The notes: generated by a model not told the origin, from the sequence alone. 64,000 nucleotides of DNA from Flavobacterium sp. (GCF_032153895.1 NZ_JALDYN010000011.1:3937-67936), one strand, 5' to 3'; positions 32,770-50,984 are shown, counted from the stretch's first letter. A program made the numbers and translations.

Positions 32770-33340
32770 AAGCGATAATTTTACGGGTTAATTTATTTTT
32801 GCTTTATGAGCTTAACTCATATACTTGTAACCACTTAAAAAATCAAACTTTTCACCTCTCCCTTTCTTACTCTGTCTGATGCTTTTACAACACCTTCAAA
32901 CCATCATCATTAAATCATTCTCATTTTATTTTTGCAGATTTAGGGATAATCTTTTGACTTAAGATGCATAAATCACTCAGATTTAATTTTTAAATCAAAA
33001 AATCGCAAAAAGTCATTTTATTTGAATGCAATTTTCTTTTACTTGACATTTAATATTTTTATTATTTGAGGCTTTTATCTTGTTAAATATTAATTTTAAT
33101 AAATTTTTATATAGACTTCTTCTAAATAATCACAATTTCATTGTAAATATTTATTTTTTTTATAGCTTGCTAATCATCAACAAAATAGCTAGTCGTCTCT
33201 CACACACAAAGATTAGCGGCATTTGTTAAATTATTAAGGAGTGAGAAAATATTAATTATTGCGAATTTAAATCATTACCGTAACGAATAACTCGTCTTAT
33301 TCTTACACTTTATAGTAAAGCTAGTCTAAAATTTATTCTT

Positions 33341-33970: not shown

Positions 33971-34083
33971 TTTAACACTTTAAAAGCAAATTGACTTCTT
34001 CTCGAATTTCAAGTACAAATTTTAATTCATCCGAAATCACAATTGTTTATAAACTCTATTGTCAAATTCAAAAACCCATAATC

Positions 34084-34118
34084 AGTATCTAAAAAAGTAA
34101 ATTAGTTTTTTAGATACT
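34084..34118. terminator. Terminator between convergent genes
   Basis: AGTATCTAAAAAA / TTTTTTAGATACT, a perfect 13-bp stem. Confidence 0.7.
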
Positions 34119-34358
34119 TTATTCAAAATCAGACAAAATTTCACATACTGGATTATGCAATAAAGCAACTTTGATAATGTCATTTGTACTAAAAAAGCCT
34201 TCCACACGCAAAACTCTGTCGATATCCTCAAGGTCAAAATCAACTTTAAGATTTGGGTATATGAAAAGTAAATCACTTTTAATTTTCTGCATTTGTTTAC
34301 CATTTTTAATAGAAGTTTTAAAAACTTCTATTTGATACTTACTTACATCATTCATCAT
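34119..34358 (-). CDS. Small ferredoxin/HMA-like-fold hypothetical protein
   Basis: IEVFKTSI...VDFDLEDIDRVLRVEG; start at MMND preferred, although the frame is open to 34601. Confidence 0.55.
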   Translation of the reverse strand: MMNDVSKYQIEVFKTSIKNGKQMQKIKSDLLFIYPNLKVDFDLEDIDRVLRVEGFFSTNDIIKVALLHNPVCEILSDFE

Positions 34359-34619
34359 TTTCCGTTTTGCATTAAGAATTCTTTTGTAGACAATTGTATT
34401 ATTTTTAAAAACCCATTGAATATCACTTAAACTCATATCTGTTTTCATTATGGAAAGAAAATAATTTATATTACTTTTTCTTGTTATGTTTAATTCTGTT
34501 TTTGGCGATTTTTTAAGAAATTCATAATTAATCCAGAAAAAATCATATTCTGAAATATTTTTTAGATTAAAATGATAATTCTCCAGTTTTGCTTTTATCA
34601 TATTTAAAAAATTAAGGTT

Positions 34620-34910
34620 TTATCTTTTTCTTGGATCTGTATTTTTATATTCTCTCAATACTTTTTGAAACGCAATAATATCAACAGGCTTATGAAACAA
34701 TTCTATTGCTGAAGGGTATTTCAAAAGTAATTTTTGTGGTCGTGTTGGTCTTTTCTCGAAACCTCCATCGCAATTTGGGCATGTATTTTCTAATATATTT
34801 TGTACACAGTCTAAACAGAATGTACACTCGAAACTACATATCATGGCTTGATCGCTATCATTTGGAAGCGATTGTCCGCAATTTTCACAATTAAGTCTTA
34901 ATTCTAACAT
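34620..34910 (-). CDS. DUF1272-family Cys-rich protein
   Basis: MLELRLNCENC...ICSFECTFCLDC...CPNCDG. Confidence 0.88.
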   Translation of the reverse strand: MLELRLNCENCGQSLPNDSDQAMICSFECTFCLDCVQNILENTCPNCDGGFEKRPTRPQKLLLKYPSAIELFHKPVDIIAFQKVLREYKNTDPRKR

Positions 34911-35017
34911 AAACTATTATTTTGGGTTTAATTAGACATTGTTTAAATCTTCATAAAGCGTTCTTCACATACTTTATGATTGTAATTTTTACTTTTATAG
35001 TTGTTCTTAAAACGTCA

Positions 35018-35788
35018 TTATTTTAAAGTAGCTAATAAATAGATTACATAACCCGATTTCCCTTTCACTTTATTGATTTCCCAATTGAAAGCATCTTGAT
35101 TTTCAAGCCCTTTAACCAATTCTTTCATTTCTTCAACAGAATAGGTTCTTAAGGACGAAACTACTCCGTCCCATAAAACACAGATAGGAACTATTGGAAT
35201 CAAATAGGTAAAAATTATGCGCCCAAAACTAAACGGCTTAATGAATGGCGTTACCAACAAAACCGATATTGGTGAAAGCAGCATTACCATAATACTCAGA
35301 AAACTTCGCTCCTGAGCTTCAAAAATGGCTATATTACTTTTGGTATTTACTGCATTTTGTAATATCTGCTTGGCGTCATCAGTTTCAAAATGATGGAATG
35401 ACAAAAATTGAGTACGTAATCCTTTAAAATTCTCAGGAACATTGCGGGCATCCACAGGTTCTGCAACAAATTCAAAATTTTCGGCTTGTTTTTGAGTATA
35501 GCGAAAAGCTTTTTTGTTGGGATAATAGTCGGTCAAGAGAATTTTCAAATCTGGCTTAGTTTTTAAAAGTTCGGTATTGAGCCAAAGCAGACCACCTCCG
35601 CCGCCTGAAGCTAAATCTATTATTTGATTGTTTTTAGAAGCCTCTAATCCTTTTTCAATTACAGGAATTACAGGTTGGTACAATTTTGTTTTATTGGATA
35701 GAAACTGTAAAAAATCTGTCATGTAATTTCTAAGAAAAGTTGGAAACCATTTTTGGTCTTCAATTTCAAATAAGTGAATACGACTCAT
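35018..35788 (-). CDS. Class I SAM-dependent methyltransferase-like protein
   Basis: IIDLASGGGG, LTDYYP, VDAR, FHHF, WDGVVSSLRTY. Confidence 0.75.
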   Translation of the reverse strand: MSRIHLFEIEDQKWFPTFLRNYMTDFLQFLSNKTKLYQPVIPVIEKGLEASKNNQIIDLASGGGGGLLWLNTELLKTKPDLKILLTDYYPNKKAFRYTQKQAENFEFVAEPVDARNVPENFKGLRTQFLSFHHFETDDAKQILQNAVNTKSNIAIFEAQERSFLSIMVMLLSPISVLLVTPFIKPFSFGRIIFTYLIPIVPICVLWDGVVSSLRTYSVEEMKELVKGLENQDAFNWEINKVKGKSGYVIYLLATLK

Positions 35789-35812
35789 ACACTTTTAATT
35801 TAATGATTGATA

Positions 35813-36931
35813 TTAATTGGTTTTTTTATAATTGATTACTGCCCAAATATTAAAAACTAAAGCAAAAACGATGATACAGGCAAAATGTGGCAATACGTTG
35901 TGAAAACCGCTGCCTTTTAAAATAAACATCCGCATCACATCAATCAGATAGGCAACAGGATTCAATTTGGAAATCCAGATGGCCCATTCCGGCATACTAT
36001 CGATAGGCGTAAACAAGCCACCCAAAAGCAAGAAAATCAATTGAAAGAAAAACATGACCAGCATCGCCTGTTGTTGAGATTCACAGTAAGTTGAAACCAA
36101 CAAACCAAAACCTAGTATTGCTAGCAAATAAATCGCCACAAAAGCATACATAACCAACATATTGCCTTCTGGCACAATACCATATATGTATCGTGCCAAT
36201 AACAATCCTATCGTAAAAACGATATTAGCCAATATCCAGAATGGAATAAGTTTACCAAGTATGAAATGGTGTTTTTTTATAGGAGTTACGTTAATCTGCT
36301 CGATAGTACCAATTTCCTTTTCTTTAACAATATTGAGCGTAGCAAGAAAACCTCCAACCAAAGTAACCAACAGGGCCAGAATTCCGGGTACAAAATACTT
36401 TTGATAATTGAGGTTTTTATTGAACCAGTTTTCAGATCTTATTTCGATTGTTGGCATTTCATAGAAAGATGAAGGATTTTTCAATTTCATTCGGATATTA
36501 TGATTAAAATCGGCTATGGTCTGTTGCAGATAATTGGCTCCCAAACCCGCTTTACTTCCGTTAATGGCATTTACGGCAACAAATAACTTTTCTTCATTAT
36601 CACGGATTAGATTTCGCTCGAATCCTTTTGGAATTTCCAAAATTAAATCGGCTGCATCGTTTTCAATATTTTTCAAAGCTTTTGTATAAGACGACTCATA
36701 ACTCTGTAATTTGAAATAAGGAGTCCCCGAAATTTTACTGATTAATTCTTTAGAATAACCCGATTTATCATTATCAACAATAGAAATATTGATGTTTTTC
36801 ACTTCATAATTGGCAGCTAAAGGCAATATCAATAGCTGGATGGTTGGCATCATAAAAATAATAGCCAAAATCGATTTGTTCCTGAATATCTGACGGAACT
36901 CTTTTCGTAGGAGAAAAAGTAATGTTTTCAT
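35813..36931 (-). CDS. ABC-2 transporter permease (YbhR-like)
   Basis: KEFRQIFRNK, VKEKEIGTIEQINVTP, LFTPIDSMP. Confidence 0.92.
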   Translation of the reverse strand: MKTLLFLLRKEFRQIFRNKSILAIIFMMPTIQLLILPLAANYEVKNINISIVDNDKSGYSKELISKISGTPYFKLQSYESSYTKALKNIENDAADLILEIPKGFERNLIRDNEEKLFVAVNAINGSKAGLGANYLQQTIADFNHNIRMKLKNPSSFYEMPTIEIRSENWFNKNLNYQKYFVPGILALLVTLVGGFLATLNIVKEKEIGTIEQINVTPIKKHHFILGKLIPFWILANIVFTIGLLLARYIYGIVPEGNMLVMYAFVAIYLLAILGFGLLVSTYCESQQQAMLVMFFFQLIFLLLGGLFTPIDSMPEWAIWISKLNPVAYLIDVMRMFILKGSGFHNVLPHFACIIVFALVFNIWAVINYKKTN

Positions 36932-36933
36932 AA

Positions 36934-38040
36934 TTATTCCAATCTGATTTTAAATTTTCTTAAGCTCACTAATAGCAGAAACAAAGTGATACCCAAAAGA
37001 ATAAGCGTTTCCTTCCACACAGATTCAAACCCCAATCCTTTTATCATTATATTTTTGACAATTATATAAAACCACTTCGATGGTACTATATTGGAAAATA
37101 ATTGCAATATTTTGGGCATGTTTTCAATCGGGAACATGAATCCGCTGAAAATCATTGTTGGCATTAACATCCCTACTAATGAAACCAGCATAGCTAATTG
37201 TTGTGAAGTAGTATTTATGGATATCAAAATACCTAAAACCAAACAACAGGTTATGAACAATGCGCTTTCGAGAACGAGTAACAACAAACTTCCTTGAATG
37301 GGCAAATCCATCGCATATACGCTCAACAATAAGATGGTACCTAAATTGATTAACGATAAAATGAAATACGGAACTGCTTTAGCCAGAATAACCATTATTG
37401 GCCGGAATGGCGACACCAAAAGAATTTCCATAGTGCCCATTTCTTTTTCCTTGACAATTGAAATAGCCGTCATCATCACACAAATAAGCATTAGCACCAT
37501 TGCCATTACACCCGGAACAAAATTGTGAACTCCTTTCATTTGCGGATTATACAACATTCGGGTTTCCGCTTTAATTTGGTAAGGTATTTGAACCGTGTTA
37601 TTTATGTCTTTTTGGTAATCGTTAATAATTGCCGACGCATAGTTGGTTATTGTCGTTGCGGTGTTCGGATCTGATGCATCTGCCAAAACCTGAATTTGTG
37701 CTTTATGCTGGTGCATTAAATCATTATTGAAATTGGCAGGTAACACTATAGCCGCCTTGATTTTCCCGTTCCTGAATTGCTCCAGAATTTCTTTTTGTGA
37801 AAACGGAGTCTTCTCAATTTCAAAATAACGACTGCTCTCAAACTTGGTGATTATTGCTTGTGAACTTTGGTCTTTTGCATTGTCAACTACGATAATTTTA
37901 GAGTTTTTCAATTCATTGGTTAACGCAAAACCAAATAACGTAATCTGGGCGATTGGCATTCCAAACAAAATGAACAGCGTTTTTCTATCACGCAATACGT
38001 GGAAAAACTCCTTTAGTACAAACATTAAAAACTGTTTCAT
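36934..38040 (-). CDS. ABC-2 transporter permease (YbhS-like)
   Basis: KEFFHVLRDRK, VKEKEMGTMEILLVSP, FPIENMP. Confidence 0.92.
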   Translation of the reverse strand: MKQFLMFVLKEFFHVLRDRKTLFILFGMPIAQITLFGFALTNELKNSKIIVVDNAKDQSSQAIITKFESSRYFEIEKTPFSQKEILEQFRNGKIKAAIVLPANFNNDLMHQHKAQIQVLADASDPNTATTITNYASAIINDYQKDINNTVQIPYQIKAETRMLYNPQMKGVHNFVPGVMAMVLMLICVMMTAISIVKEKEMGTMEILLVSPFRPIMVILAKAVPYFILSLINLGTILLLSVYAMDLPIQGSLLLLVLESALFITCCLVLGILISINTTSQQLAMLVSLVGMLMPTMIFSGFMFPIENMPKILQLFSNIVPSKWFYIIVKNIMIKGLGFESVWKETLILLGITLFLLLVSLRKFKIRLE

Positions 38041-38057
38041 ATTTTTAAGTGCTAATG

Positions 38058-38810
38058 TTAATCGCCTCTTTGGGCAACTCGCGCCAATTGATAAAATACC
38101 TCATCCATAGTGGCGACGTTAAACTGATTTTTCAAATCGGTTGGTGATCCTAATGCGGAAATCGCTCCATCAACCATCATCGAAATACGATTACAATACT
38201 CTGCTTCGTCCATATAATGTGTGGTTACAAAAATGGTAATACCCCGTTCAGCTGCTTCATAAATCAAATCCCAAAATTGTCTCCTAGTTACCGGATCGAC
38301 ACCTCCTGTTGGCTCATCAAGAAATACAATTTCAGGATCATGGAATACGGCTGTACAAAATGCCAACTTCTGTTTCCATCCCAAAGGAAGGCTGGCTACA
38401 AGTTTATTTGCTTCTTTCTGTAAGCCCAGTTTTGTAATAAGTTGCTCACTTTTTGATTTAATCTGCTCATTGGAAAGGCCGTATATGCCTCCAAAAAATT
38501 CCAAATTTTCCAAAATAGTTAAATCTTCATACAAGGAGAATTTCTGACTCATGTAACCAATGTGTTTTTTGATTTTTTCAGTTTCCTTAAACACATCATA
38601 GCCTGCAATGGTAGCAGAACCCGAAGTTGGTATAGACAAACCGCACAACATACGCATGGCGGTGGTTTTCCCTGCTCCATTCGCTCCTAAAAAGCCAAAT
38701 ATTTCACCCTTATACACTTCAAAGCTGATTTCTTTTACCGCTGTAAAATCACCAAAGCGTTTGCATATTTTTTCGGCCTTAATAGATATTTCCCTATTCG
38801 TTTCCATCAT
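38058..38810 (-). CDS. ABC transporter ATP-binding protein
   Basis: GANGAGKTT, LPLGWKQ, LDEPTGGVDP. Confidence 0.93.
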   Translation of the reverse strand: MMETNREISIKAEKICKRFGDFTAVKEISFEVYKGEIFGFLGANGAGKTTAMRMLCGLSIPTSGSATIAGYDVFKETEKIKKHIGYMSQKFSLYEDLTILENLEFFGGIYGLSNEQIKSKSEQLITKLGLQKEANKLVASLPLGWKQKLAFCTAVFHDPEIVFLDEPTGGVDPVTRRQFWDLIYEAAERGITIFVTTHYMDEAEYCNRISMMVDGAISALGSPTDLKNQFNVATMDEVFYQLARVAQRGD

Positions 38811-39789
38811 GTTTATTTTTATCAAATAATAACAGCATGAAACTATCTTCTACTGTTGCTTTAGCAAGTTTTACTTCTATATCAGAATGTCCTTGTGTTT
38901 TCAGATAGTTTTCGATTTCTGAAATAGTATCACTTTGCTCATTCAAAACTGTTAGATGAGCATATTCCCCAAAGGCATAGCTATTGTCCGTATTACCCCA
39001 ATGGCTTAAAGATTTCAACACTCCATACATATTATTAGCCTTTACATCATACAATTGCTTTGGATAATTGGACATAATGTTTTGTGGTGAATCGATCGAA
39101 AGAATTTTACCATCCTGCATCAATGCAATTCGATCACACATGGTAGCTTCGTCCATATAAGGTGTAGAAACCATAATAGTGATGTTTTGCTTTTTTAACC
39201 TTTTCAGCATTTCCCAAAATTCTTTTCGTGAGACAGGATCTACCCCGGTTGTAGGCTCATCTAGAAAAAGTACTGTTGGTTTGTGGATAAGAGCACAGCA
39301 AAGAGCTAATTTTTGTTTCATTCCTCCCGATAACTTCCCTGCCCGTCTGTCTTTAAACTTTTCAATCTGACTGTATATATCCTCAATCAAATGGTAGTTT
39401 TCCTCTATAGTTGTATTGAAAATAGTGGCAAAAAAACGTAGATTTTCTTCGATAGTCATGTCTTGATACAGCGAAAATTTACCAGGCATGTAACCTACAT
39501 TGTTTCTGATTTTTTTATAGTCTTTTACAATGTCAAAACTATCTACTGAAGCTATACCGCTGTCTGGTAAAACCAAAGTAGTCAATACTCTAAACAAACT
39601 CGTCTTCCCTGCTCCGTCTGGACCTATGATGCCAAAAATTTCGCCACGGTTTACTGTAAATGAAACATTGTTTACTGCTACTATTTCCTTTTGCTTACCA
39701 TAAGCTTTTGAAATATTCTCAACTCGTACGGCAATTTCAGCATGGCTGTTTTGTTCGGAATGGTCAATATCTTTTTTAATAGCTTCCAT
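38794..39789 (-). CDS. ABC transporter ATP-binding protein
   Basis: GPDGAGKTS, LSGGMKQ, LDEPTTGVDP. Confidence 0.93.
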   Translation of the reverse strand: MEAIKKDIDHSEQNSHAEIAVRVENISKAYGKQKEIVAVNNVSFTVNRGEIFGIIGPDGAGKTSLFRVLTTLVLPDSGIASVDSFDIVKDYKKIRNNVGYMPGKFSLYQDMTIEENLRFFATIFNTTIEENYHLIEDIYSQIEKFKDRRAGKLSGGMKQKLALCCALIHKPTVLFLDEPTTGVDPVSRKEFWEMLKRLKKQNITIMVSTPYMDEATMCDRIALMQDGKILSIDSPQNIMSNYPKQLYDVKANNMYGVLKSLSHWGNTDNSYAFGEYAHLTVLNEQSDTISEIENYLKTQGHSDIEVKLAKATVEDSFMLLLFDKNKHDGNE

Positions 39790-39800
39790 TATTGCACGTT

Positions 39801-40691
39801 TTACAATTTAACTTCGCCGTACATGCCAATTTTAAGCAATCCGTCGTTTTTCACTTTTATTTTAACAGCATAAACCAAATTAGCTCTCTCTTCTTTTGTT
39901 TGTATCGTTTTTGGTGTAAACTCGGCTTTGTCGCTAATCCATTCAATAATTCCTTCGTATTTTTTATAGCTATCGGCTTCAGAATCAACAAAAACAGTTA
40001 CTTTTTGCCCGATTTTAACTTTAGAAAATTGATTACCAGTTATGTAGGCTCTTAAGGTTATCGTCGATAAATCAGCTATTTTGTACAATGCTTTACCAGT
40101 TGATGTCATCTCGCTCTCTTCAGCAAATTTTGTAATAACGCTTCCATCCAATTCATTGATAATCTGTGATTTTTCGAGCTGGTCGTTGATTTGCTCAATT
40201 TGTGCCTTAATAGCTTCCGCCTCTTCACCTAAACTTGAAACAGAATTTCCTAAAGAAGTGTGTTGCGCAGCAATTTTCTTCTTAATGATATCTATCTGAC
40301 TACCGGCATCATCCAATTGCTTACGGGTTGCTGCATCCGCTTTTACCAAATTTGCAATACGGTTTTGCTCTCTTCTAGCATGCTTCAAATCTTCCTGTAA
40401 AGCAGCAGTTTCAGCGGCAATATTTGGTTTTCTACTTATAATTGCACTCATTTGTGCTTCCAATTGTTTTTTCTTTAGCGACAACTGAACGGTATCAATA
40501 TATCCTAATTTTTGACCTGCTTTAAGAACCTGTCCTTCTTCAATACTCAATTCTTTGATAAGGCCACTTGCCTGTGCTGATACAATGGTTTCTACAGCTT
40601 CAAATGTTCCTGTTGCATCGAATTCATTTTCGTTGTTACCACATGATAATAAGAACAGTGCTGCAATTACTATGATTAATTTAGTTTTCAT
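39801..40691 (-). CDS. HlyD-family membrane-fusion lipoprotein (YbhG-like)
   Basis: Lipobox LLSC; EFTPKTIQT...LVYAVK...LKIGM. Confidence 0.9.
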   Translation of the reverse strand: MKTKLIIVIAALFLLSCGNNENEFDATGTFEAVETIVSAQASGLIKELSIEEGQVLKAGQKLGYIDTVQLSLKKKQLEAQMSAIISRKPNIAAETAALQEDLKHARREQNRIANLVKADAATRKQLDDAGSQIDIIKKKIAAQHTSLGNSVSSLGEEAEAIKAQIEQINDQLEKSQIINELDGSVITKFAEESEMTSTGKALYKIADLSTITLRAYITGNQFSKVKIGQKVTVFVDSEADSYKKYEGIIEWISDKAEFTPKTIQTKEERANLVYAVKIKVKNDGLLKIGMYGEVKL

Positions 40692-40704
40692 ATTTCTTAA
40701 AGAA

Positions 40705-41958
40705 TTAGTTTCCAGTTATTGTTTTTTCTTTGTACAATGCCATGAGTAATTCTATTTCATGGGCTTTTTTGTTTTGCATTGCTTTGTTTTCTTCGTTTAC
40801 CTCCTGCAAGTAATCATTACTGTCAATGACACCATTTTCCAGTTGTGCTAATGAAGCTTTTTTAATACTGCTTCTTAACATTATTATCTTTGCATCTGTA
40901 TCAATGAACTCTTGTAACTTACTGATTTCGGCATTTTGTTGTTTGAGTTGCTGATTAGTATTGAAAAGAAATGTTTCTCGATCTGCGTTATTCATTTCTT
41001 TTTTGATATCTAAAATTGCTTTCTCTTTTTTCTTGGTAAACGACATCGACCAGTTTAGACGAATACCTCCGATAAAATAACTTTGCACACCTTCTTCAAA
41101 CATATTTAATCCCGGGTTTGACATTCCAGATTGAGCAAACAAACTTATTTTGGGAGTATCTCTTATACTGATTAATTTTTTATCGGCATCCAGCTTCTGA
41201 TTTTTATAATCGAATAATTGCAGTTCCGGGCGATTGATTGTTGCAACTGTTGATGTCGGAACTGGTTTTTCAAAAATGCTCTTTTCATTGATTTCAAAAC
41301 CTGTAAAAAGCGACAACATTTGAACAAAAGCAATTTTGCTGTTTTTGATTTCGATGGCTTGTAATTCTGCTTTTAACAGTTCTGCCTTCAGGATTTCAGC
41401 ACTGCTGCGAAATGCGGTACCATTAATAATTTGTGCTTCCACTGTTTTAAGCCCGATTTTAATATCGGTTTTCAACAATTCGTTTTGTGCTGCTTGTTCG
41501 TCTAAAAGCAGGATTCCAAAATATAAATTATTAACTCTGTCTTTTACCGCATACAATTCAACCTCAACAGATTGCAAATCAATTTTATTGATTGCCTGTT
41601 CAGTTTTTTTTCTGTTTTTGATAACACCTCCGTCAAAAATCAATTGGTTAACATCCGTATAAGCTTTGTATTGTGTTTGGCTTATCTCGGGCATATCAAC
41701 ACCCGGAATTGATACCGGAAATTTAGTTACATCAGATTGCCAAGACAATTGATTAACCCCCGAAAGCTGAGGAAGATATCCCTTAGAAATATTAGAAATC
41801 GAATACTCAAGGCTCTTTGAAATAAGTTCCTTCTTTTTCGTCGATGGATACTGCTCTATGGCAGCTTTTTGACATTCTTCTAAAGTTAGGATTCTCACTT
41901 CCTGAGCTTTAGAAAACGTTGTTAAAAACAACAACAGTAATACATAATTCATTTTCAT
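40705..41958 (-). CDS. TolC-family outer-membrane efflux protein
   Basis: Signal peptide, YLPQL, coiled coils, LENGVI; operon context. Confidence 0.88.
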   Translation of the reverse strand: MKMNYVLLLLFLTTFSKAQEVRILTLEECQKAAIEQYPSTKKKELISKSLEYSISNISKGYLPQLSGVNQLSWQSDVTKFPVSIPGVDMPEISQTQYKAYTDVNQLIFDGGVIKNRKKTEQAINKIDLQSVEVELYAVKDRVNNLYFGILLLDEQAAQNELLKTDIKIGLKTVEAQIINGTAFRSSAEILKAELLKAELQAIEIKNSKIAFVQMLSLFTGFEINEKSIFEKPVPTSTVATINRPELQLFDYKNQKLDADKKLISIRDTPKISLFAQSGMSNPGLNMFEEGVQSYFIGGIRLNWSMSFTKKKEKAILDIKKEMNNADRETFLFNTNQQLKQQNAEISKLQEFIDTDAKIIMLRSSIKKASLAQLENGVIDSNDYLQEVNEENKAMQNKKAHEIELLMALYKEKTITGN

Positions 41959-41973
41959 TTTTTTGTTTTTAAT

Positions 41974-42002
41974 TTAAAAATTTGTTTTAATCATTTGATT
42001 AA
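41974..42002. promoter_or_regulatory. Candidate TetR operator (tandem) upstream of tolC
   Basis: Palindrome TTAATCA-TT-TGATTAA (41987-42002) with an adjacent AAAAATTTGTT. Confidence 0.6.
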
Positions 42003-42021
42003 TTTATGGATAAAAAAATAG

Positions 42022-42615
42022 CTATTCTTTTTCCAGAAGAATTTTTACCCAATGTGGAATTAAAGTTCTCCTTTCATCCATCAGCACTTCAAAAGTTTCA
42101 TTAGTTGCCATTCCTGAAGCAAACATCATTGGTTTTGCCAAAAAAGGAAAAACCGTAAGACCAAGAACACTAATCATAAAATGAACTGGATTAACCTCTG
42201 GCTTTTTATCATACAATTGTTTTGCAAAGGATGAATTAACAATAGCATCGAGCTTGATTCTTCCGTCAAAAAGCTGAGGATTATTTTTCAACTCACTAAA
42301 TACAAAAATTGGCAAATCAGGATTCTCAAGGAGCATTTTTGTATACGTTTCAACAATGGCTTGTACTTTATCTTCTAGCGTTAAGCTTTCGTTTGTTAGA
42401 ACCGGAAAAAGAACACCAAAAATTTGTTGCACTTTTTCAAATATCACCTGATGAAACAACTTTTCTTTACTTCTAAAGTAATAATTCAACAAGGCTAAAT
42501 TAATTCCAGCTTCATCTGCAATATCTCTAGTCCTGGTAGCAGCATAACCTTTTTTCATAAACACAACTCTGGCCGCTTCTTTAATTCTCTCTTCAGTAGT
42601 TTCGTCTTTTTTCAA
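42022..42615 (-). CDS. TetR/AcrR-family regulator
   Basis: KGYAATRTRDIADEAGINLALLNYYFRSKE; TTG start; TATCTTTG box at 42639-42646 (-). Confidence 0.93.
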   Translation of the reverse strand: MKKDETTEERIKEAARVVFMKKGYAATRTRDIADEAGINLALLNYYFRSKEKLFHQVIFEKVQQIFGVLFPVLTNESLTLEDKVQAIVETYTKMLLENPDLPIFVFSELKNNPQLFDGRIKLDAIVNSSFAKQLYDKKPEVNPVHFMISVLGLTVFPFLAKPMMFASGMATNETFEVLMDERRTLIPHWVKILLEKE

Positions 42616-42869: not shown

Positions 42870-45173
42870 ATGAATTTTAACGAATTTAAGCATAGCCCTT
42901 TTGAAATAAAGATTTCTTTCCACAAAGTATTAGAAACCTTAGAAGATATAGCTGCTTCCAATATTGATTATCGCTCGAATTATGCGAAAGCATTGATAGA
43001 AAAAACTTCGGAGATTTCCAATATAAGGAACGGTTTTGAGAATATGGATCAAATTAATGAGAATGAAACATTAATTCAACATTTGCTTGCAGATTTATTT
43101 CCAACAGCTCTAACTCATAATGAAATAAAAGCCGTTACTATTCCTTTTTTAAATATTACTTTCAATTATACTGAAAGATTTAAAAAAATATTGGCTGATG
43201 CTGGAAGTGAATTTGACATTTCCATCAGAGATTTCGACAAAGATCAGTTTTATGTAATGAATTGTTGTTTGATTCTCAACGCCCATTACAATCAAAAGTT
43301 TGATTTCAGCAAACCACTCTACTATGATATTCCTGATTCTGAAGGCATAACAAGACACTATCGCATTCTATACAATGCCGATTTTCTAGAAATTATACCA
43401 ACAGAAAAGTCCGTTACAATTACTCAAAAAGATATCGAAATTCTAATTGACAATTTTGAAAACGTAGAACTATGGAAAGAAAAATTTCCACCTCAAAGTT
43501 GGCTATTGAAAGGTTTTGGTATCGTTGTACTTTATGATGCAACTACAGAAAATGCAATTTCAAATCTTAAAACAGGCTTGAACAAACTTAATGATGAAGA
43601 AACAAAACCTAATATTGATAACTTTTCTAAAATATTTCAATCGATTTTTAGAATATCAAACATCAAGATTGGCTTTACCTCATTATTAGGAAAGGAAATC
43701 ATTCCGAATGAAAGACGAATTAATAGTTTCATTTTAGGCAATCGATCCGAAATTATGTGCAAAACCATATTGCCTGTAAGCATATACGACACTTTAATTA
43801 ATCAGCAGAAAAAAGTTGAAATTTCAAATGTAGAAAGATTAAAACAAAATATTGAATACCAAAGTTTTGCCAACCATCTGCTTGAGCAAAATATTCATAG
43901 TTGCATACTGGCTCCCGTTGTCAAAGAAAATAAGCTGTTTGGAATTTTAGAAATTGTTACCTCAAAAAAAAATGAACTAAATAGTCTTAATTCGAATAGA
44001 CTAGACATAATTATGCCTTTTATAGCCGATACAATTGATCGATACAATGCCAGTGTTTTGAATAAAATAGAAGCAATTATACAAAAAGAGTATACTAAAA
44101 TACATTCAAGCGTTTATTGGAAATTTCAAGACAATGTTTTAAACTATATCATTTCAAGCGATCATAAGTCGGATTACGAATTCAGTGATATTGTCTTTAA
44201 AGATGTTTATCCGCTTTACGGACAAATAGATATCAAAGAATCATCGGGTACCAGAAATTATGCTGTTCAGCATGACATTCAAAACCAATTGAACGATTTA
44301 ATTAATATTATTTCATTACTGCATCAAAAATCAAATCTGAAAATCCTGGAACAACGAAAATTCGAACTCGAATCCTATTTAAAGGAACTCCAAACCAATT
44401 TAAAAGCCGATACAGAGCAACAAATAAACCGTTACGTAGAAACAGAAATTCATCCAATTTTACAAAACGCAATAAATAGTGCTACTGGAAATTCAGAAAA
44501 CATCCAGGAGTATTTTGAAAAAATAGACGATACAACAGGTACTTACTACAACGAACGTAAAAAATTTGACGCCACACTTACCACTATTAATAAAAAACTT
44601 AGTGTGGTTTTGGATGACAAACAAAAAGAAGCACAAGCCATCTTTCCGCATTACTTTGAACGCTTTAATACCGATGGTGTTGAACACAATATGTACATTG
44701 GAAACTCCATTGCGCCACAATCCAACTTTAGTCTAACTTATTTGTACAACATGCGTTTGTGGCAACTTCAGGTACTTGCAGAAATGGAAAGGGAACACTA
44801 CGCTTTAAAAGATTCGCTTCCTTATCCGTTAGAAGTTACTTCACTGATTTTGGTTTTCAGTTCACCGATTACCATTCGTTTCCGTATGGATGAAAAGCGC
44901 TTTGATGTAGACGGTTCGTACAATGCTCGTTACGAAGTCGTTAAAAAACGAATAGATAAAGCCATGGAAAAAGGAACCCAAAAGCGCATAACTGAACAAG
45001 GCAAAATAACCATTGTATATTCTCATGCTGATGAAGAAAAAGAATACAAAAAATACATCGAATACCTTCAGTTTCAAAAAATTCTGGAACCAACAACTGA
45101 GTTTTTGGAAGTAGAAGATTTACAAGGTGTTTCCGGTTTAAAAGCTATCCGTGTAAAAGTAAAACTGAATTAA
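42870..45173 (+). CDS. GAF-domain protein with a C-terminal divergent class III nucleotidyl-cyclase-like domain
   Basis: GAF signature SCILAPVVKENKLFGILEIVT; GQIDIKESS, NTDGVE, RFDVDGSYNARYE, LQGVSGL line up with cyclase elements (by eye). Confidence 0.6.
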   Translation: MNFNEFKHSPFEIKISFHKVLETLEDIAASNIDYRSNYAKALIEKTSEISNIRNGFENMDQINENETLIQHLLADLFPTALTHNEIKAVTIPFLNITFNYTERFKKILADAGSEFDISIRDFDKDQFYVMNCCLILNAHYNQKFDFSKPLYYDIPDSEGITRHYRILYNADFLEIIPTEKSVTITQKDIEILIDNFENVELWKEKFPPQSWLLKGFGIVVLYDATTENAISNLKTGLNKLNDEETKPNIDNFSKIFQSIFRISNIKIGFTSLLGKEIIPNERRINSFILGNRSEIMCKTILPVSIYDTLINQQKKVEISNVERLKQNIEYQSFANHLLEQNIHSCILAPVVKENKLFGILEIVTSKKNELNSLNSNRLDIIMPFIADTIDRYNASVLNKIEAIIQKEYTKIHSSVYWKFQDNVLNYIISSDHKSDYEFSDIVFKDVYPLYGQIDIKESSGTRNYAVQHDIQNQLNDLINIISLLHQKSNLKILEQRKFELESYLKELQTNLKADTEQQINRYVETEIHPILQNAINSATGNSENIQEYFEKIDDTTGTYYNERKKFDATLTTINKKLSVVLDDKQKEAQAIFPHYFERFNTDGVEHNMYIGNSIAPQSNFSLTYLYNMRLWQLQVLAEMEREHYALKDSLPYPLEVTSLILVFSSPITIRFRMDEKRFDVDGSYNARYEVVKKRIDKAMEKGTQKRITEQGKITIVYSHADEEKEYKKYIEYLQFQKILEPTTEFLEVEDLQGVSGLKAIRVKVKLN

Positions 45174-46360
45174 TATCCAGACGTTTTAAAAGCCCAGACA
45201 AAAGCAAAAACCGATGCAATTAGTCCTATCATAAAAATAGTGTACGTCATTCGCAAAAGTTTGTATTTTCGGTTTAAAACCAAGCCGAGATAATACAAGT
45301 CTTTTATCATGGAATTGTACAAATAATCACGGTCTTTCATCAGTTCATTTACTGCCCATTCATATTCGGGCAACGGCATTTTGTAGAAATTCCCGAAGAA
45401 CAACAAATTCACTTTTTTGTCTTCAATGTCTTTTCGGGTAAATGTGCCACTGGTTACTTTTGGCCGTGTTGACATAATCGCAAAAATGATAGTTACAACA
45501 CTAGACATTAAAAGTATAAAAGTAGGAATTACCAAATGAGCATTTCCCGGACTATCCAGTTTCGGAATCAAGGTCGATAACGAAATCGAAATAATAATCG
45601 CATTTACCGAAAGTAATATATTGGCCTTGCTGTCTGCAATTTCACTCAAACGGGTGTGGTTGTTTAACGTAGTACGAAACATTGTATCGATACCGCGTTC
45701 CGGTCGTTCCAGCTTTTCCAGCTTCTTCTTATTGATTTTGGATTTTGAAAACTCTTTTTCGCCGCCGGAAAGTTTCTTGATTTGTTCGTGTACCAAAAAA
45801 ATGTTTCTGTCTTTTTGCTGCTGCCAATTGGCCTTAGCGTAATCTGTAAAATAGCGATGACAATTAACCAAAACGTGACGATTTTCGGTAGCCCATTCTA
45901 TATCGGTGTAGGTTTTATGCTGTATTAGCTGCCATTCATCTCGCAATAATTGACATATAGCCATATAATTTTCATTACCAAAATGCCAATAGTCAGCATC
46001 TTTTATGATTTTCTCCAATAAATTTTCCGGCTGATAATCTACTTTGGTAGCTTGAATTAATTTAGCCACCTTGTCAATAAATTCTTTATCTTTATTGTGA
46101 TTTTCAAGGAATCCGCGAACAATCGATATACTTTGTTCTTCATGATTTGAAAATCCTTTAATATAACCGGTATCGTGAAACCATGCTGCAAGAAGTACTA
46201 TTTCTAAATCTTCTGTTTTTACATTTTCATTCAAGGCAAGTAAATTAGCTGCCGAAACCACTTTTTGGGTATGGTTGAAGTTGTGATAAACGTAAGAATC
46301 CGAAAGCTGTTCTTTAAAAAGATTGAACACGAAATCTTCAGCAGTTTGCATGATATTCAT
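45170..46360 (-). CDS. HD phosphohydrolase fused to a Pycsar-effector (PycTM/DUF5706)-like membrane domain
   Basis: YHNFNH, AWFHDTG, KDAD; then ADSKANILL, TM pair, RP...LLFFGNF, RKYKLLR and a TM helix. Confidence 0.8.
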   Translation of the reverse strand: MNIMQTAEDFVFNLFKEQLSDSYVYHNFNHTQKVVSAANLLALNENVKTEDLEIVLLAAWFHDTGYIKGFSNHEEQSISIVRGFLENHNKDKEFIDKVAKLIQATKVDYQPENLLEKIIKDADYWHFGNENYMAICQLLRDEWQLIQHKTYTDIEWATENRHVLVNCHRYFTDYAKANWQQQKDRNIFLVHEQIKKLSGGEKEFSKSKINKKKLEKLERPERGIDTMFRTTLNNHTRLSEIADSKANILLSVNAIIISISLSTLIPKLDSPGNAHLVIPTFILLMSSVVTIIFAIMSTRPKVTSGTFTRKDIEDKKVNLLFFGNFYKMPLPEYEWAVNELMKDRDYLYNSMIKDLYYLGLVLNRKYKLLRMTYTIFMIGLIASVFAFVWAFKTSGY

Positions 46361-46386
46361 AAACGTATTTTTAATACCACTAATTT

Positions 46387-49300
46387 ATGAAATTGTTTTG
46401 TGTAATTAACGTAAAACAAATACGTAAGCCATTTACTTACGCATTAATACTCTTTTTTCTGCATTCTTGTGCAACATACAAACCAGATTTTGGTAAAAAA
46501 ACTGCTGCTACACTTTCCGAAAATCAATCGGATTCTATAAAAACATTACATACCTTTTATTTAATTGGTGATGCCGGAAATGCTGACGAACCTCAAACCC
46601 AAAACACTTTAGCACTTTTAGAAGAAAATTTGAAAAAAGCAGATAAAAATGCTACACTCCTATTTCTTGGCGACAACATTTATCCTTTAGGAATGCCGGC
46701 CAAAAAGAAAGATCCTGAACGGGAATTAGCGGAAATCAAATTGAAAAATCAGCTTAAAATTACTGAAAACTTTAAGGGTAAAACCATTTTTATTCCCGGA
46801 AATCACGATTGGTATCACGGTATCAAAGGCTTAAAAGAACAGGAAACTTTTGTAAATGATTACTTGAAAGCTAAAAAAGCGTTTTTGCCGCAAAACAGTT
46901 GTGCTTTAGAAAGTGTAAAAATCAATAATGATGTAACCCTGATTATCGTTGACAGTCAATGGTTTTTAGAAGATTGGGATAAAATTCCGCTAATTAACGA
47001 CGAGTGCGACATCAAAACCCGTGAAAAGTTTTTTGAAGAATTTGAAAGCCTCATCAACAAGAACCAAAATAAGGTTACGATTTTGGCAATTCATCATCCG
47101 TTAATGAGCAACGGACCACACGGCGGTCAGTTTTCGTGGGACAAACAAATTTATCCGTCAAAAGCCAAAATTCCAACGCCAGTTTTGGGTTCATTCATTA
47201 ATTTATTGCGAAAAACATCCGGAATCAGTCCTCAGGACATCCAAAACAAGCAATATTCTGCTTTTATCAACAGAATTTTGCCAATCATTCAGAACAATGA
47301 CAATATTGTGGTCGTTTCCGGACACGAACACAATTTACAATACATAGAAAAAGATGGTTTAAAACAAATTATCAGTGGTTCGGCATCCAAAAGAGAAGCG
47401 GCAAAAGCGATTTATCCAGTCAATTTTTCTTTTGGCGGTAACGGATATGCCGTCTTAAAAGTAAAGGAAAACAAAAGTACCGAAGTACAGTTCATCAGCA
47501 CCGAAAACAACACCGAAAAAGAACTTTTCTATCATCAGGTTTTAAAGCCGCATATTGCCAAAGATTCTATTTATCCGTATAAAGCGGACAAGACTTTTGC
47601 AGCATCGGTTTATCATCCTGAAATGACAAAAAAGAGCGGATTTTATCGCTTTTTGTGGGGCGAACATTATCGCAACTATTACGGTAAAGCTATTGAAGCT
47701 CCCGTTGTCTACCTCGACACCCTTTACGGTGGCTTAAAACCCTCAATCGAAGGCGGCGGTCATCAGTCGTTATCATTGCGCTTAAAAGATAAAAACGGAA
47801 AAGAATACGTAATGCGCGGTCTCAGAAAAAGCGCTACCCGATTTTTGCAAACCGTTGCGTTTAGAGACCAAAACATTGAAAACGAATTCAAAAACACGAC
47901 TGCAGAATCTTTTATTTACGATTATTACACTACAGCGCATCCGTTCACACCATTTATTATTGGTGAGTTAGCTGATAAAGCCGGAATTTATCATTCAAAT
48001 CCAAAACTGTTTTATGTTCCCAAACAAAATGCTTTAGGAAAATACAATGAAAATTTTGGCGACGAATTGTATATGATTGAAGAACGTCCTACCGATGAGC
48101 ACAAAGATCTTGCGAGTTTCGGTAAACCGGACGCCATTGTTGGCAGCGATGATGTTTTGGCAAATTTGCGCAAAGATGAAAAATACGAAGTTGATGAAAC
48201 TGCCTATATCAGAGCGCGATTATTCGACATGCTCATTGGCGATTGGGACCGACACATTGACCAATGGCGTTGGGCGGAATATAAAAAAGACGACAAAATT
48301 ATTTACAAGCCAATTCCTCGAGATCGCGACCAGGCTTTTGCTAAAATTGACGGTAACTTACTGGAATTAATTGCCAATGGAGCGCCTGCAACAAGGCACA
48401 TGAAATCGTTTAAAAAAGAGTTTGCCGATGTAAAATGGTTCAATTTTGCGGCAAATTCGCTTGATTTGGCGTTCATTAAAAATAATGATATTGAAACTTG
48501 GAAAGCTCAGGCTCAAGATATTGTGAAAAACTTAACGGATGATGCTATTGATTCGGCTTTTGCAAAACTTCCGAAAGAAATGAATACTGATGCGACAACT
48601 GCTAACATTGTTGCAACCTTAAAAGAAAGAAAAAAAGGATTAGAAGCCTATGCCGTAAAATACCATCATGTTCTTGAGAAAAAAATTCTGATTTTAGGAA
48701 CCGACAAAAAAGACAAATTCATAATAACCCGACTAAACAACGGAAAAACAAAAATCGAAGTACTGCGAATTATCAAGGGAGAAGAACAACTTCAGTTTTC
48801 CAAAATTTATGATAAAAAATACACTAAAAACATCTGGATTTATGGTCTTGATGAAGATGACGATTTTATCGTAAACGGTGATGGCGGTTCTCCTATTTTT
48901 ATCCGATTAATTGGTGGACAAAACAAAGACACTTACACCATCAACAACGGAAAAGGATTAAAAATTCATGATTTTAAATCGAAGCCGAATACTTTCAACT
49001 CCAACAAAAATGCAAGAGTTGCGCTTTCTGACGATTACGACATCAATGAATATTATTACAAACGCCCAACATTAGATGCAACGATGGTTTTACCTTCGAT
49101 CGGTTCCAATCCGGATGATGGTGTAAAATTAGGAGCTGCAATTACTTATACCAAATACGGGTTTATTAATGCTCCGTTTACCCGAAAACATACTTTTAAA
49201 GGCAATTACTATTTTGCCACCGAAGGTTTTGAACTCTTTTACAACGGCATTCTCACCAAAGCCATCAAAAATTGGAATTTTGAATTGGATGCGCAATACA

Positions 49301-50118
49301 CTACACCCAATTTCAGTATTAATTATTTTGGTTATGGCAATGAAACTATAAATGAAGATGATGCATTTGGCATGGATTTCAATCGAGTTAAAATTCAGCA
49401 GTTTAAAGTGGCTCCATCCATTAGACGAATTGGCCGTCATGGCAGCGATTTACAATTTTCTGCAAGTTTTGAAAATATCGAAGTGGAAGGAACCAATAAT
49501 AGATTCGTTAATATTCCGGGAGCCGTTTCTTCTACAATATTTGAATACCAGCAATTTGCCGGTTTAGGAATGCGATTTGGTTTTGAAAATTATGACAACA
49601 TTTCCAATCCAACTATGGGAATGACGTTTTATGTTTTAGCGAATTGGAAAATGAACCTTTCAGACAACAAGCGAAACTTTCCATATCTTGAAGGTGCTTA
49701 CGGAATCAGTCATAAATTATCCACCAATGGTCGCCTTGTTTTCGGAACACTTTTAAAAGGAAAAATGCTTTTAAACAACAATTTCGAGTTTTATCAAGGT
49801 GCAACATTAGGCGGAGATTACGATTTAAGAGGTTACCGAGCGCAACGTTATTTGGGTAAACAATCATTTTATCAAAGCTCGGATTTGCGTTTCACACTAG
49901 GTAAAATCAGTCAAAGTTTAATACCGATGCGTTACGGAATTTTGGGAGGATACGATTACGGACGCGTTTGGGTTGATGGCGAAAATTCCAACAAATGGCA
50001 TCAGGCTGTTGGTGGCGGAATTTGGCTTAACGGCTTAAATTCAATAACTGGCCGCTTAACCTATTTTAATGGAACTGACGGAAACAGAATAGCGTTCGGA
50101 TTAGGTTTCGGATTCTAA
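46387..50118 (+). CDS. Lipoprotein: purple-acid-phosphatase-type metallophosphoesterase + atypical kinase-like domain + Omp85/BamA-ShlB beta-barrel
   Basis: Lipobox LHSC; GDAG, GDNIY, GNHD, HHP, GHEH; GGGHQS, IGDWDRH..QW, RDRDQAF; LRGY and terminal GLGFGF. Confidence 0.8.
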   Translation: MKLFCVINVKQIRKPFTYALILFFLHSCATYKPDFGKKTAATLSENQSDSIKTLHTFYLIGDAGNADEPQTQNTLALLEENLKKADKNATLLFLGDNIYPLGMPAKKKDPERELAEIKLKNQLKITENFKGKTIFIPGNHDWYHGIKGLKEQETFVNDYLKAKKAFLPQNSCALESVKINNDVTLIIVDSQWFLEDWDKIPLINDECDIKTREKFFEEFESLINKNQNKVTILAIHHPLMSNGPHGGQFSWDKQIYPSKAKIPTPVLGSFINLLRKTSGISPQDIQNKQYSAFINRILPIIQNNDNIVVVSGHEHNLQYIEKDGLKQIISGSASKREAAKAIYPVNFSFGGNGYAVLKVKENKSTEVQFISTENNTEKELFYHQVLKPHIAKDSIYPYKADKTFAASVYHPEMTKKSGFYRFLWGEHYRNYYGKAIEAPVVYLDTLYGGLKPSIEGGGHQSLSLRLKDKNGKEYVMRGLRKSATRFLQTVAFRDQNIENEFKNTTAESFIYDYYTTAHPFTPFIIGELADKAGIYHSNPKLFYVPKQNALGKYNENFGDELYMIEERPTDEHKDLASFGKPDAIVGSDDVLANLRKDEKYEVDETAYIRARLFDMLIGDWDRHIDQWRWAEYKKDDKIIYKPIPRDRDQAFAKIDGNLLELIANGAPATRHMKSFKKEFADVKWFNFAANSLDLAFIKNNDIETWKAQAQDIVKNLTDDAIDSAFAKLPKEMNTDATTANIVATLKERKKGLEAYAVKYHHVLEKKILILGTDKKDKFIITRLNNGKTKIEVLRIIKGEEQLQFSKIYDKKYTKNIWIYGLDEDDDFIVNGDGGSPIFIRLIGGQNKDTYTINNGKGLKIHDFKSKPNTFNSNKNARVALSDDYDINEYYYKRPTLDATMVLPSIGSNPDDGVKLGAAITYTKYGFINAPFTRKHTFKGNYYFATEGFELFYNGILTKAIKNWNFELDAQYTTPNFSINYFGYGNETINEDDAFGMDFNRVKIQQFKVAPSIRRIGRHGSDLQFSASFENIEVEGTNNRFVNIPGAVSSTIFEYQQFAGLGMRFGFENYDNISNPTMGMTFYVLANWKMNLSDNKRNFPYLEGAYGISHKLSTNGRLVFGTLLKGKMLLNNNFEFYQGATLGGDYDLRGYRAQRYLGKQSFYQSSDLRFTLGKISQSLIPMRYGILGGYDYGRVWVDGENSNKWHQAVGGGIWLNGLNSITGRLTYFNGTDGNRIAFGLGFGF

Positions 50119-50126
50119 CAAAACAA

Positions 50127-50984
50127 TTATGGATTCAAATCAAACTGATATACAATGCCACCACTTTTCTTCACTTTCTCATCAGCAATAAAAAGCGTGT
50201 TGCCGTTTTTAAAAGCAATCGCTTCTTTTTGGGAATTATGATTCAGATTAATTTCCGATATTTTACCATCGAAAAAAGCATCCTCTTTAAAATCTTCAAA
50301 AAGCCATACTTTCTGGTGACTTAAAATTGCAATCCGCTTTTGATTAGGACTAATTGCCGCACCCGTTACTGCTCCGGAATTGAATGTATCATCGGTTTTA
50401 TACGAACCCATTAAAGTCGCCTGATGATTTCCAGCAGTCATCGGAACACGATACAACAAAGTGGTTCCGTCAAAATTCTTGCTTCGGTTTTTGGTAAAAA
50501 TATAGAAGTGATTGTTGTACACGATAAAAGCTTCGGCATCATATAACAATTCCAATTTTTTAGGTGGAAAATCTTTTTGTTCGGGATAGCTGAAACTAAT
50601 TTTAGCAACGGCATCGGTTTCTTCAGTGTCTAACGAATCTTTACTGATTTTATAAATGTACAAATCTTTTCGGATATTGTCGTTGTTGCCGAAATCACCG
50701 ATGTAGATATTCCCTTCGGTATCGCTGGCTAAATCTTCCCAATCGATATTTTCGGCATTGGCAATTGTAATTTCATTAGCAATATCACCTGCTTCGGTTA
50801 GCTGAAAAAGAACATTTTTATTTCCACTATCGGCAATAGCCCAAATAGAGTTATCCACTGAAGTTATCCCCGAAATCTCTTTTAATTTTTTCGGTAAATC
50901 GAAGAGCTTTTCCGGTTGGGTTTCCGAAGGTGTACAACGCAAAAACAATAATCCTATAACAAAAAATGGAACGACTTTTTTCAT
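50127..50984 (-). CDS. Beta-propeller lipoprotein (SdiA-regulated/phytase-like)
   Basis: Lipobox FLRC; KEISGI, DWEDL, DIGNN-like GDFGNN, DAEAF, QKEAI repeats. Confidence 0.65.
   Translation of the reverse strand: MKKVVPFFVIGLLFLRCTPSETQPEKLFDLPKKLKEISGITSVDNSIWAIADSGNKNVLFQLTEAGDIANEITIANAENIDWEDLASDTEGNIYIGDFGNNDNIRKDLYIYKISKDSLDTEETDAVAKISFSYPEQKDFPPKKLELLYDAEAFIVYNNHFYIFTKNRSKNFDGTTLLYRVPMTAGNHQATLMGSYKTDDTFNSGAVTGAAISPNQKRIAILSHQKVWLFEDFKEDAFFDGKISEINLNHNSQKEAIAFKNGNTLFIADEKVKKSGGIVYQFDLNP

Follow-up and report, generated by a model that had tools for sequence, protein, structure and literature searches.

A 64,000-nucleotide stretch of the Flavobacterium sp. assembly GCF_032153895.1 (NZ_JALDYN010000011.1:3937-67936), referred to here as the window, contains on its minus strand an open reading frame (ORF; 45170..46360, ATG start, stop codon included) encoding a 396-aa protein, HD-PycTM, in which an HD phosphohydrolase domain is followed by a linker and a three-transmembrane (3TM) module of the PycTM/SpdB3 type. 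PycTM (PF18967, formerly DUF5706) has been described as the transmembrane effector of Pycsar (Tal et al. 2021). From its sequence HD-PycTM is predicted to be an inner-membrane protein, with a cytoplasmic HD domain of intact active site tethered to the PycTM-class 3TM module. Its gene appears to be a core, vertically inherited chromosomal gene, and the protein is a probable housekeeping relative of the effector known from phage defence. Linkage of the gene to those encoding an outer-membrane metallophosphoesterase-Omp85 protein (MPE-Omp85), a beta-propeller and a GAF domain protein is kept across classes and phyla. In other lineages PPK1 together with a SixA-like phosphatase, PAP2 and, occasionally, class III cyclases are among its neighbours. 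On balance we lean, with somewhat better than even confidence, towards a housekeeping envelope protein of phosphate, polyphosphate or nucleotide physiology carrying a ligand-controlled, oligomeric membrane module. Most of this confidence attaches to a housekeeping role as opposed to Pycsar defence, and much less of it to the details of ligand and pore.

Domains, conserved residues and fold of HD-PycTM

The N-terminal domain (aa 1-199; 45764..46360, minus strand) is assigned by Pfam, PDB, Foldseek and AlphaFold evidence to an all-helical, cytoplasmic HD domain of YedJ/YpgQ-like type. The Pfam HD profile (PF01966) matches aa 28-126 with E=1e-9 and 39.1 bits against a cut-off of 22, and the H...HD...D signature of the HD superfamily is present in the all-helical domain. 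The original prediction, made from the DNA alone, had stated that every HD metal ligand is in place, and this was borne out: the ligands are H30 (in the context HNFNH30T), H62 and D63 (WFH62D63TGY) and D123 (IKDAD123). No HD-GYP family match was obtained in Pfam or NCBIfam and no GYP motif follows the HD in the sequence. The domain is joined to the membrane module by a flexible Lys/Glu-rich linker (aa 200-222; 45695..45763, minus strand) that is variable across the family and has pLDDT values below 50.

The rest of the protein (aa 223-396; 45173..45694, minus strand) forms the PycTM/pJV1-SpdB3-type module, including a pre-TM1 helix with the motif ADSKAN. The Pfam PycTM profile matches aa 270-379 over positions 3-107 of its 107, with E=1.8e-36 and 125.2 bits against a gathering score of 27.2. 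Three PADLOC PycTM models match aa ~230-390 over almost their whole length (E=3.2e-17, 2e-12 and 9.2e-12), and CBASS 2TM-effector models of the same collection match aa ~243-389 more weakly (E=4e-11 to 1e-4). On the profile side, the relationship to PycTM on which the original prediction depended is therefore confirmed. Hydropathy and sequence likewise agree with its description of a basic linker followed by a three-TM domain with ADSKA, RP and LLFFGNF, these motifs starting at aa 242, 299 and 319, respectively. In the PDB nothing similar to the 3TM module was found by Foldseek or by profile, the copies searched being without the structure 37HR of EcPucTM, the Pucsar effector compared below.

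The arrangement of the PycTM family, three TM helices of which the second and third are separated by a helical cytoplasmic insert, is seen both in the hydropathy plot and in the AlphaFold model. TM1 (aa 246-268; 45557..45625, minus strand) is placed by hydropathy, by the AlphaFold helix 222-267 and by invariant columns, and the stretch ADSKANILLSVNAIIIS within it shows no variation in an alignment of 49 orthologues. TM2 (aa 273-300; 45461..45544, minus strand) coincides with helix 271-297 and ends in an invariant RP motif, and TM3 (aa 368-394; 45179..45259, minus strand) lies in helix 344-395. Between the last two, a basic cytoplasmic helical loop (aa 301-367; 45260..45460, minus strand) carries the invariant elements NLLFFGNF, D, Y.S, DLY.LG.VL and KY..LR, which make it a candidate ligand-binding or oligomer interface. 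Twelve Lys and Arg residues precede TM1, the TM1-TM2 loop of 9 residues has one and the TM2-TM3 loop of 73 residues has 14. By the positive-inside rule this distribution suggests an N-in topology, in which the HD domain and every conserved motif would face the cytoplasm.

The HD ligands and the motifs of the TM module are invariant across the 49 orthologues. The same residues are invariant or nearly so in ten sequences drawn from Flavobacteriia, Chitinophagia, Cytophagia, Saprospiria and Ignavibacteria, a conservation that, judged from the alignments, is far beyond chance. The two domains have not diverged equally. Within the genus the TM module has a mean pairwise identity of 82% and the HD domain one of 54%; across phyla the values are 56% and 38%, respectively. 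This indicates that the TM module has an importance of its own. The linker reaches only 46% within the genus and 25% across phyla; it varies in length as well as in sequence, members of the Ignavibacteria type having up to ~50 aa more.

An AlphaFold2 model built from the 49 orthologues has a mean pLDDT of 81. Its N-terminal domain is all-helical, mostly with values of 85-97, aa 201-222 are disordered (pLDDT <50), and the C-terminal part consists of long helices (222-267, 271-297 and 344-395, the last continuing into TM3) and short ones (309-313, 319-327 and 330-341). By sequence the HD domain matches the PDB entries 2pq7, 3b57 and 3dto, and the family profile retrieves E. coli YedJ (3gw7, 1.1e-5), 2pq7 (2e-5), 3dto (1e-4) and also 3djb. 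Foldseek returns 2pq7, 3b57 and Bacillus subtilis YpgQ (5dqw) with target-normalised TM-scores of 0.66-0.72 and a probability of 1.00. Lesser matches were obtained to the HD-like C-terminal domain of PPX/GppA and to HD-GYP proteins at E of about 0.1-0.3. In sequence and fold the closest neighbours of the domain are thus predicted to be of the YedJ/YpgQ type, an assignment that is a subfamily placement and not orthology since identity is only ~18-21%.

Distribution of the family and its genomic neighbourhood

In contrast with the framing of the original prediction, the fusion of HD and PycTM domains is not an unusual event. It is the norm in a very large family that belongs to Bacteroidota and Ignavibacteriota, has one or more members in Armatimonadota and comprises thousands of proteins that are already machine-annotated. 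A word-indexed protein search gave at least 7989 matches. The best 120 come from Flavobacterium, show 60-83% identity and have the same precomputed HD+PycTM architecture, and nearly all of them are full-length. In their source records they go under the names "Pycsar system effector family protein", "DUF5706 domain-containing protein" or "HD superfamily phosphohydrolase". An exhaustive HMMER scan of 1.84 billion cluster representatives (50% identity) retrieved 4965 at E<=1e-3, 3020 at E<=1e-10 and 647 at E<=1e-30, and the best 150 of these are nearly all full-length fusions of 380-430 aa with 34-57% identity. Named members come from Kaistella, Wenyingzhuangia, Chitinophaga, Spirosoma, Phaeodactylibacter, Ignavibacteria and one Armatimonadota metagenome-assembled genome (MAG). 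When one genome per species was scanned, at least 465 species-representative genomes were found to encode a close relative. A tblastn search of plasmids with the TM module gave three matches, all of them HD fusions from Cytophagales, and so no stand-alone PycTM for motif comparison. The architecture is in the databases, and the bare observation of the fusion is not new. No papers were found, however, for DUF5706, for Pycsar combined with an HD fusion or with PPK, or for the neighbourhood of the HD-fused family. A search for expression found the sequence in soil-metagenome DNA runs only and in no RNA runs.

The neighbourhood was compared in the best 80 of the at least 465 loci, which belong to Flavobacterium and to Chryseobacterium, Epilithonimonas and Lutibacter, and neighbours within 8 kb were considered. 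Head-to-head with the HD-PycTM gene in 79 of these 80 loci lies the MPE-Omp85 gene, which in the window occupies 46387..50118 (plus strand). It encodes a predicted lipoprotein of 1243 aa with a calcineurin-like metallophosphoesterase domain (Pfam Metallophos, 1.1e-12) and a C-terminal Omp85/ShlB-type barrel (Pfam ShlB, 2.3e-4; NCBIfam Omp85_fam, 3e-13). The two genes are separated by a spacer of 26 bp (46361..46386), so that both promoters must sit inside the coding sequence of the opposite gene. Spacer lengths of 23-31 bp were found for about 60 of the 77 related loci compared, and an alignment of 16 DNA sequences reveals a conserved AATTTAGTGGTA block within the spacer. Beyond MPE-Omp85 a predicted beta-propeller protein is encoded in 74 of the 80 loci; in the window its gene lies at 50127..50984 (minus strand) and specifies 285 aa with weak Pfam matches to Phytase-like, SdiA-regulated and NHL families. 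Its orthologues in other lineages carry PF06977 (SdiA-regulated), and the protein accompanies HD-PycTM and the Omp85 fusion in Flavobacteriia, Cytophagia, Chitinophagia and Ignavibacteria.

On the other side a convergent gene (42870..45173, plus strand) encodes a 767-aa protein, GAF-767, characterised by a weak Pfam GAF match, the source name "GAF domain-containing protein" and Foldseek matches to GAF domains. A GAF gene is found within 8 kb downstream in all 80 loci, directly adjacent in 74 and separated by insertions of 1.5-7 kb in six. In the window the stop codons of the GAF and HD-PycTM genes overlap by 4 bp (45170-45173), and in most related loci a gap of 56-150 bp is present.

The C-terminal ~330 aa of GAF-767 have no family assignment and are extremely conserved, with FDVDG.YNARYEVVKKRIDKA, ERF.TDGVEHN.YIG and YGQIDIK.SS nearly invariant in 42 orthologues. 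By eye the motifs YGQIDIKGSS, FKTDGVEHN.YIG and FDVDG.YNARYE resemble those of class III cyclases. With the full GAF-767 model, Foldseek places GAF-cyclase chains best (6fht, 7d9t) in long alignments that the GAF domain and coiled coil could themselves drive. Comparison by hhalign with the neighbourhood cyclases described below gave a probability of 0.8% (0.3% without the helical insert) and with a cyclase-TPR protein 0.07%, and neither hmmsearch with a class III cyclase profile hidden Markov model (HMM) nor profile searches of the PDB gave a match. The idea of a cryptic class III cyclase was not adopted, as all sequence-profile tests are negative and only the motifs seen by eye and an ambiguous Foldseek result speak for it.

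For other lineages a census was made of 88 loci, 80 from a metagenome scan with a 10-sequence alignment as query and eight examined individually, and neighbours were tallied in two ways, with targeted tblastn searches and with an unbiased clustering of every neighbouring ORF. The counts are lower bounds, many contigs being short. MPE-Omp85 occurs in 43-44 of the 88 loci, GAF in 29-30, the propeller in 27-34, His_Phos_1 in 20, PPK1 in 17, and a cyclase and PAP2 in five each. In the 33 loci flanked by 5 kb or more on each side the corresponding numbers are 26 for MPE-Omp85, 18 for the propeller, 14 for GAF, 11 for PPK1, nine for the histidine phosphatase, five for the cyclase and four for PAP2, and four loci have none of these families. 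A further pass with the HMM revealed three more cyclase-TPR proteins beside propeller or Omp85 genes. These three (L094:1447-3390, L097:5203-7161 and L109:2480-4438) are of ~650 aa, with an N-terminal class III cyclase, an FlgO-like region and TPR repeats; their loci, of the Ignavibacteria type, are without GAF-767 and the cyclase-TPR gene adjoins that of the propeller or of MPE-Omp85.

The arrangement of these genes differs between lineages. The homologue of Fulvitalea (Cytophagales) lies between the propeller and MPE-Omp85 genes and that of a membrane class III cyclase. In Chitinophaga the propeller and MPE-Omp85 are divergent upstream and PPK1 follows immediately downstream at 7 bp, and in Spirosoma and a relative the genes for GAF (upstream), Omp85 and HD-PycTM share one strand. 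A contig of Ignavibacteria has HD-PycTM together with a SixA-like histidine phosphatase, and two cyclases, Omp85 and the propeller on the opposite strand; a related MAG has PPK1 and PAP2 in addition. In five loci (L089, L092, L093, L095 and L101) the genes for HD-PycTM, a SixA-like histidine phosphatase of 167 aa and PPK1 appear to constitute an operon, with gaps of 50-120 bp, and the same trio is found as a divergent pair 230-360 bp apart in L094, L099, L100, L105 and L109-L112. We take this arrangement to be the strongest functional hint. Adjacency that is kept while order and orientation change argues for functional coupling, and since PPK1 and MPE-Omp85 are normally single-copy their recurrence would be hard to put down to chance.

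As regards defence, the class III cyclase HMM, built from the neighbourhood cyclases, detected no cyclase in the window or within 8 kb in the 80 related loci, and no Guanylate_cyc or PycC match was found by Pfam or PADLOC among the annotated neighbours. PADLOC assigned no specific defence model to the neighbours, giving only generic helicase similarity for a DEAD-box protein and a marginal match for MPE-Omp85 (E=5e-4). A Pycsar effector is expected beside a PycC cyclase, and no such gene accompanies HD-PycTM; a patchy, mobile distribution in defence islands is also expected, and the same flanking genes are instead found in 79-80 of the 80 loci. The lack of a cyclase partner and the core distribution with fixed neighbours indicate that the gene is not part of a canonical Pycsar system.

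The surrounding genes are those of an ordinary housekeeping chromosome. Nearby in the window are ABC-2/ABC/HlyD/OEP efflux genes with a TetR regulator, Ham1, a DbpA-type DEAD-box helicase, SpoU and an ECF sigma/anti-sigma pair. The efflux cluster (35813-42615, minus strand) comprises two ABC-2 permeases, two ABC ATPases, an HlyD-type adaptor, an outer-membrane efflux protein and TetR, and is not kept beside HD-PycTM in related loci. A patch at 32000-36000 with a GC content of 0.30-0.32, compared with ~0.37 elsewhere, contains a CI-repressor-like HTH protein (33341-33970; Pfam Phage_CI_repr, 1.7e-9) and two ORFs without Pfam match (34119-34601 and 35018-35788), and may be the remnant of a mobile element. 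A long ORF at 26968-32769 (minus strand) encodes 1933 aa. Scans for tRNA genes, Rfam families, sigma-70 promoters and terminators gave nothing informative.

Possible function and competing explanations

The mechanism that we favour is the following. By analogy with EcPucTM, the 3TM modules would assemble into a ring or pore, perhaps hexameric, with TM2 as the putative pore-lining helix. The invariant cytoplasmic face (ADSKAN, RP and NLLFFGNF) may bind a phosphorylated small ligand, and the tethered HD domains may hydrolyse this ligand or a related phospho-compound at the membrane. The membrane module would in this way be controlled by a ligand and carry the means of turning that ligand over, and would serve regulation and not cell suicide, possibly in envelope physiology linked to phosphate and polyphosphate or to phospho-nucleotides. 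The suggestion in the original prediction of a ligand-controlled membrane module carrying its own ligand-degrading enzyme is a reasonable model of the protein. If it is true it more likely serves physiology than suicide. The abortive-infection framing of that prediction finds poor support in a core syntenic gene that has no cyclase partner and no specific defence neighbours.

In that framing the protein would be a self-limiting Pycsar-like effector, in which a cyclic nucleoside monophosphate (cNMP) induced by phage opens the PycTM pore, the HD domain degrades the cNMP as a threshold or timer and the cyclase is encoded elsewhere in the genome. The homology to PycTM is clear, including to models made from Pycsar-associated effectors, stand-alone PycTM and PucTM effectors give cNMP-dependent defence, and a class III cyclase lies near the homologue in some lineages, namely in Fulvitalea (L081), in Ignavibacteria (L085) and in the loci L086, L120 and L139, those of L081 and L085 weakly matching PycC models. 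Nevertheless the E values of these adjacent cyclases against PycC, 1e-7 to 1e-9, reflect no more than generic class III similarity, and in the 64-kb window and within 8 kb in the 80 related species there is none. Moreover the neighbours have no specific defence matches, the gene is near-universal and syntenic across the genus and beyond, unlike patchy mobile defence genes, and its strongest single-copy partners are PPK1, the SixA-like phosphatase and the outer-membrane phosphoesterase, all of which makes this explanation very improbable. A plain membrane-anchored HD enzyme, whose 3TM part is a re-used PycTM scaffold that tethers and perhaps oligomerises but neither senses nor forms a pore, is also considered unlikely, if less so. 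In its favour are the intact, conserved HD active site, the flexible linker, a typical feature of enzymes that are tethered, and the existence of membrane-bound HD phosphodiesterases such as PgpH. A mere anchor should, however, evolve faster than the enzyme, and the identities given above run the other way (82% for the TM module against 54% for the HD domain in the genus, 56% against 38% across phyla); TM1, ADSKAN, RP and NLLFFGNF are invariant across phyla, and it is this same motif-bearing region that the PycTM profiles recognise.

The recurrent phospho-enzymes could also be read more literally, with the HD domain as a polyphosphate or nucleoside-polyphosphate hydrolase working with PPK1 and the 3TM ring as a conduit of phosphate or polyphosphate to the periplasm, where MPE-Omp85 and the propeller act. 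PPK1, with or without the SixA-like phosphatase, adjoins the gene in at least 17 of the 88 loci and in at least three arrangements, the recurrent partners (Metallophos, PAP2, His_Phos_1 and the phytase-like propeller) are all phospho-enzymes, and the HD-like C-terminal domain of PPX/GppA is among the weaker Foldseek matches. That match is weak (E about 0.1, query-normalised TM-score ~0.2) and the domain concerned is non-catalytic; PPK1 is unlinked in Flavobacteriia and in the window, no PycTM relative is known as a polyanion carrier and the direction of transport is pure speculation, so that we regard such a device as quite improbable. A wider and only tentative proposal, which we hold to be rather doubtful, is that HD-PycTM, MPE-Omp85, the propeller and GAF (or a class III cyclase in its place), joined in some lineages by PPK1 and the SixA-like phosphatase, form an envelope-spanning housekeeping system for phosphate and polyphosphate in the Bacteroidota-Ignavibacteriota group, under the control of a nucleotide messenger.

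Several points weigh against the favoured account of a ligand-controlled housekeeping module. Oligomerisation and pore formation would be carried over from a distant relative. PPK1, the histidine phosphatase and the cyclase are not neighbours in Flavobacterium or in the window, so that the case for a phosphate/polyphosphate link is borrowed from other lineages. The adjacency of a cyclase in 8 of the 88 loci is possibly background in cyclase-rich genomes, and that link is suggestive at most. The characterised YpgQ-like HD enzyme is a nucleoside triphosphate pyrophosphohydrolase and not a cNMP phosphodiesterase. Finally, much of the synteny in Flavobacteriia could be plain inheritance and not selection for linkage. 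A comparison of the divergence of HD-PycTM with that of its neighbours, meant to reveal co-inheritance, gave identities nearly all of which fall within 57-65%, too narrow a range to be informative.

The question has consequences for annotation. Thousands of genes of Bacteroidota are automatically named "Pycsar system effector family protein", a name that probably overstates the defence role; if the family is a housekeeping one, the name is misleading and counts of defence systems in Bacteroidota are inflated. The family would also offer a non-lethal and tractable setting, for instance in Flavobacterium johnsoniae, in which to learn what the 3TM module binds and whether it is a gated pore. If the unrecognised envelope system proposed above existed, the PycTM pore module would be physiological and non-suicidal, and the TM effectors of Pycsar and Pucsar would have arisen for defence from an older housekeeping module, or vice versa. 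That PPK1 and MPE-Omp85 recur as linked genes points to phosphate/polyphosphate biology in Bacteroidota of which no description was found.

Comparison with known systems

For the HD domain the nearest known proteins are the YedJ/YpgQ-type enzymes (3gw7, 2pq7, 3b57, 3dto and 5dqw), which are the best matches for aa 1-199 and share the H..HD..D metal site, but these are soluble proteins of about 200 aa without a membrane module and at the low identity stated above. PgpH is a 7TM receptor-HD phosphodiesterase of cyclic di-AMP. Together with HD-GYP proteins, which are among the weaker Foldseek matches, it provides a precedent for an HD hydrolase of nucleotide messengers joined to membrane or sensor modules, although the domain order and the membrane module are different and HD-PycTM has no GYP motif.

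As to the membrane module, the matches of PADLOC models of CBASS 2TM effectors to aa ~243-389 place it within a wider set of nucleotide-activated membrane effectors, but they are weaker than those to the PycTM models and no CD-NTase is found near HD-PycTM. With PycTM itself the protein shares a C-terminal region of 170 aa that matches the profile, three TM helices and the helical insert between TM2 and TM3. It differs in having an N-terminal HD enzyme of 200 aa and no adjacent PycC, in being core and syntenic and in its neighbours, which belong to phospho-metabolism and the envelope. The cGMP-dependent effector EcPucTM of Pucsar has been resolved by cryo-electron microscopy at 2.67 A as a hexamer (PDB 37HR) in which TM2 lines a channel of ~15 A, and it belongs to the "pJV1-SpdB3 family 3TM" class, with three TM helices per protomer and a mainly helical cytosolic region as in HD-PycTM (bioRxiv 10.64898/2026.08.12.744502). 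Unlike HD-PycTM, it is cyclase-linked, acts in phage defence, has a beta-sheet appendage/CNBD and lacks an HD domain. SpdB3 of the Streptomyces conjugative plasmids pJV1 and pSVH1, which is toxic when expressed in E. coli (PMC4447253), can be compared by description. It is borne on plasmids, whose intramycelial spreading depends on it, and lacks an HD domain, but as the founding member of the 3TM family in the nomenclature of the Aravind laboratory it has a non-defence role in an envelope-spanning multiprotein complex, and it thereby offers a precedent for a housekeeping role of the 3TM module.

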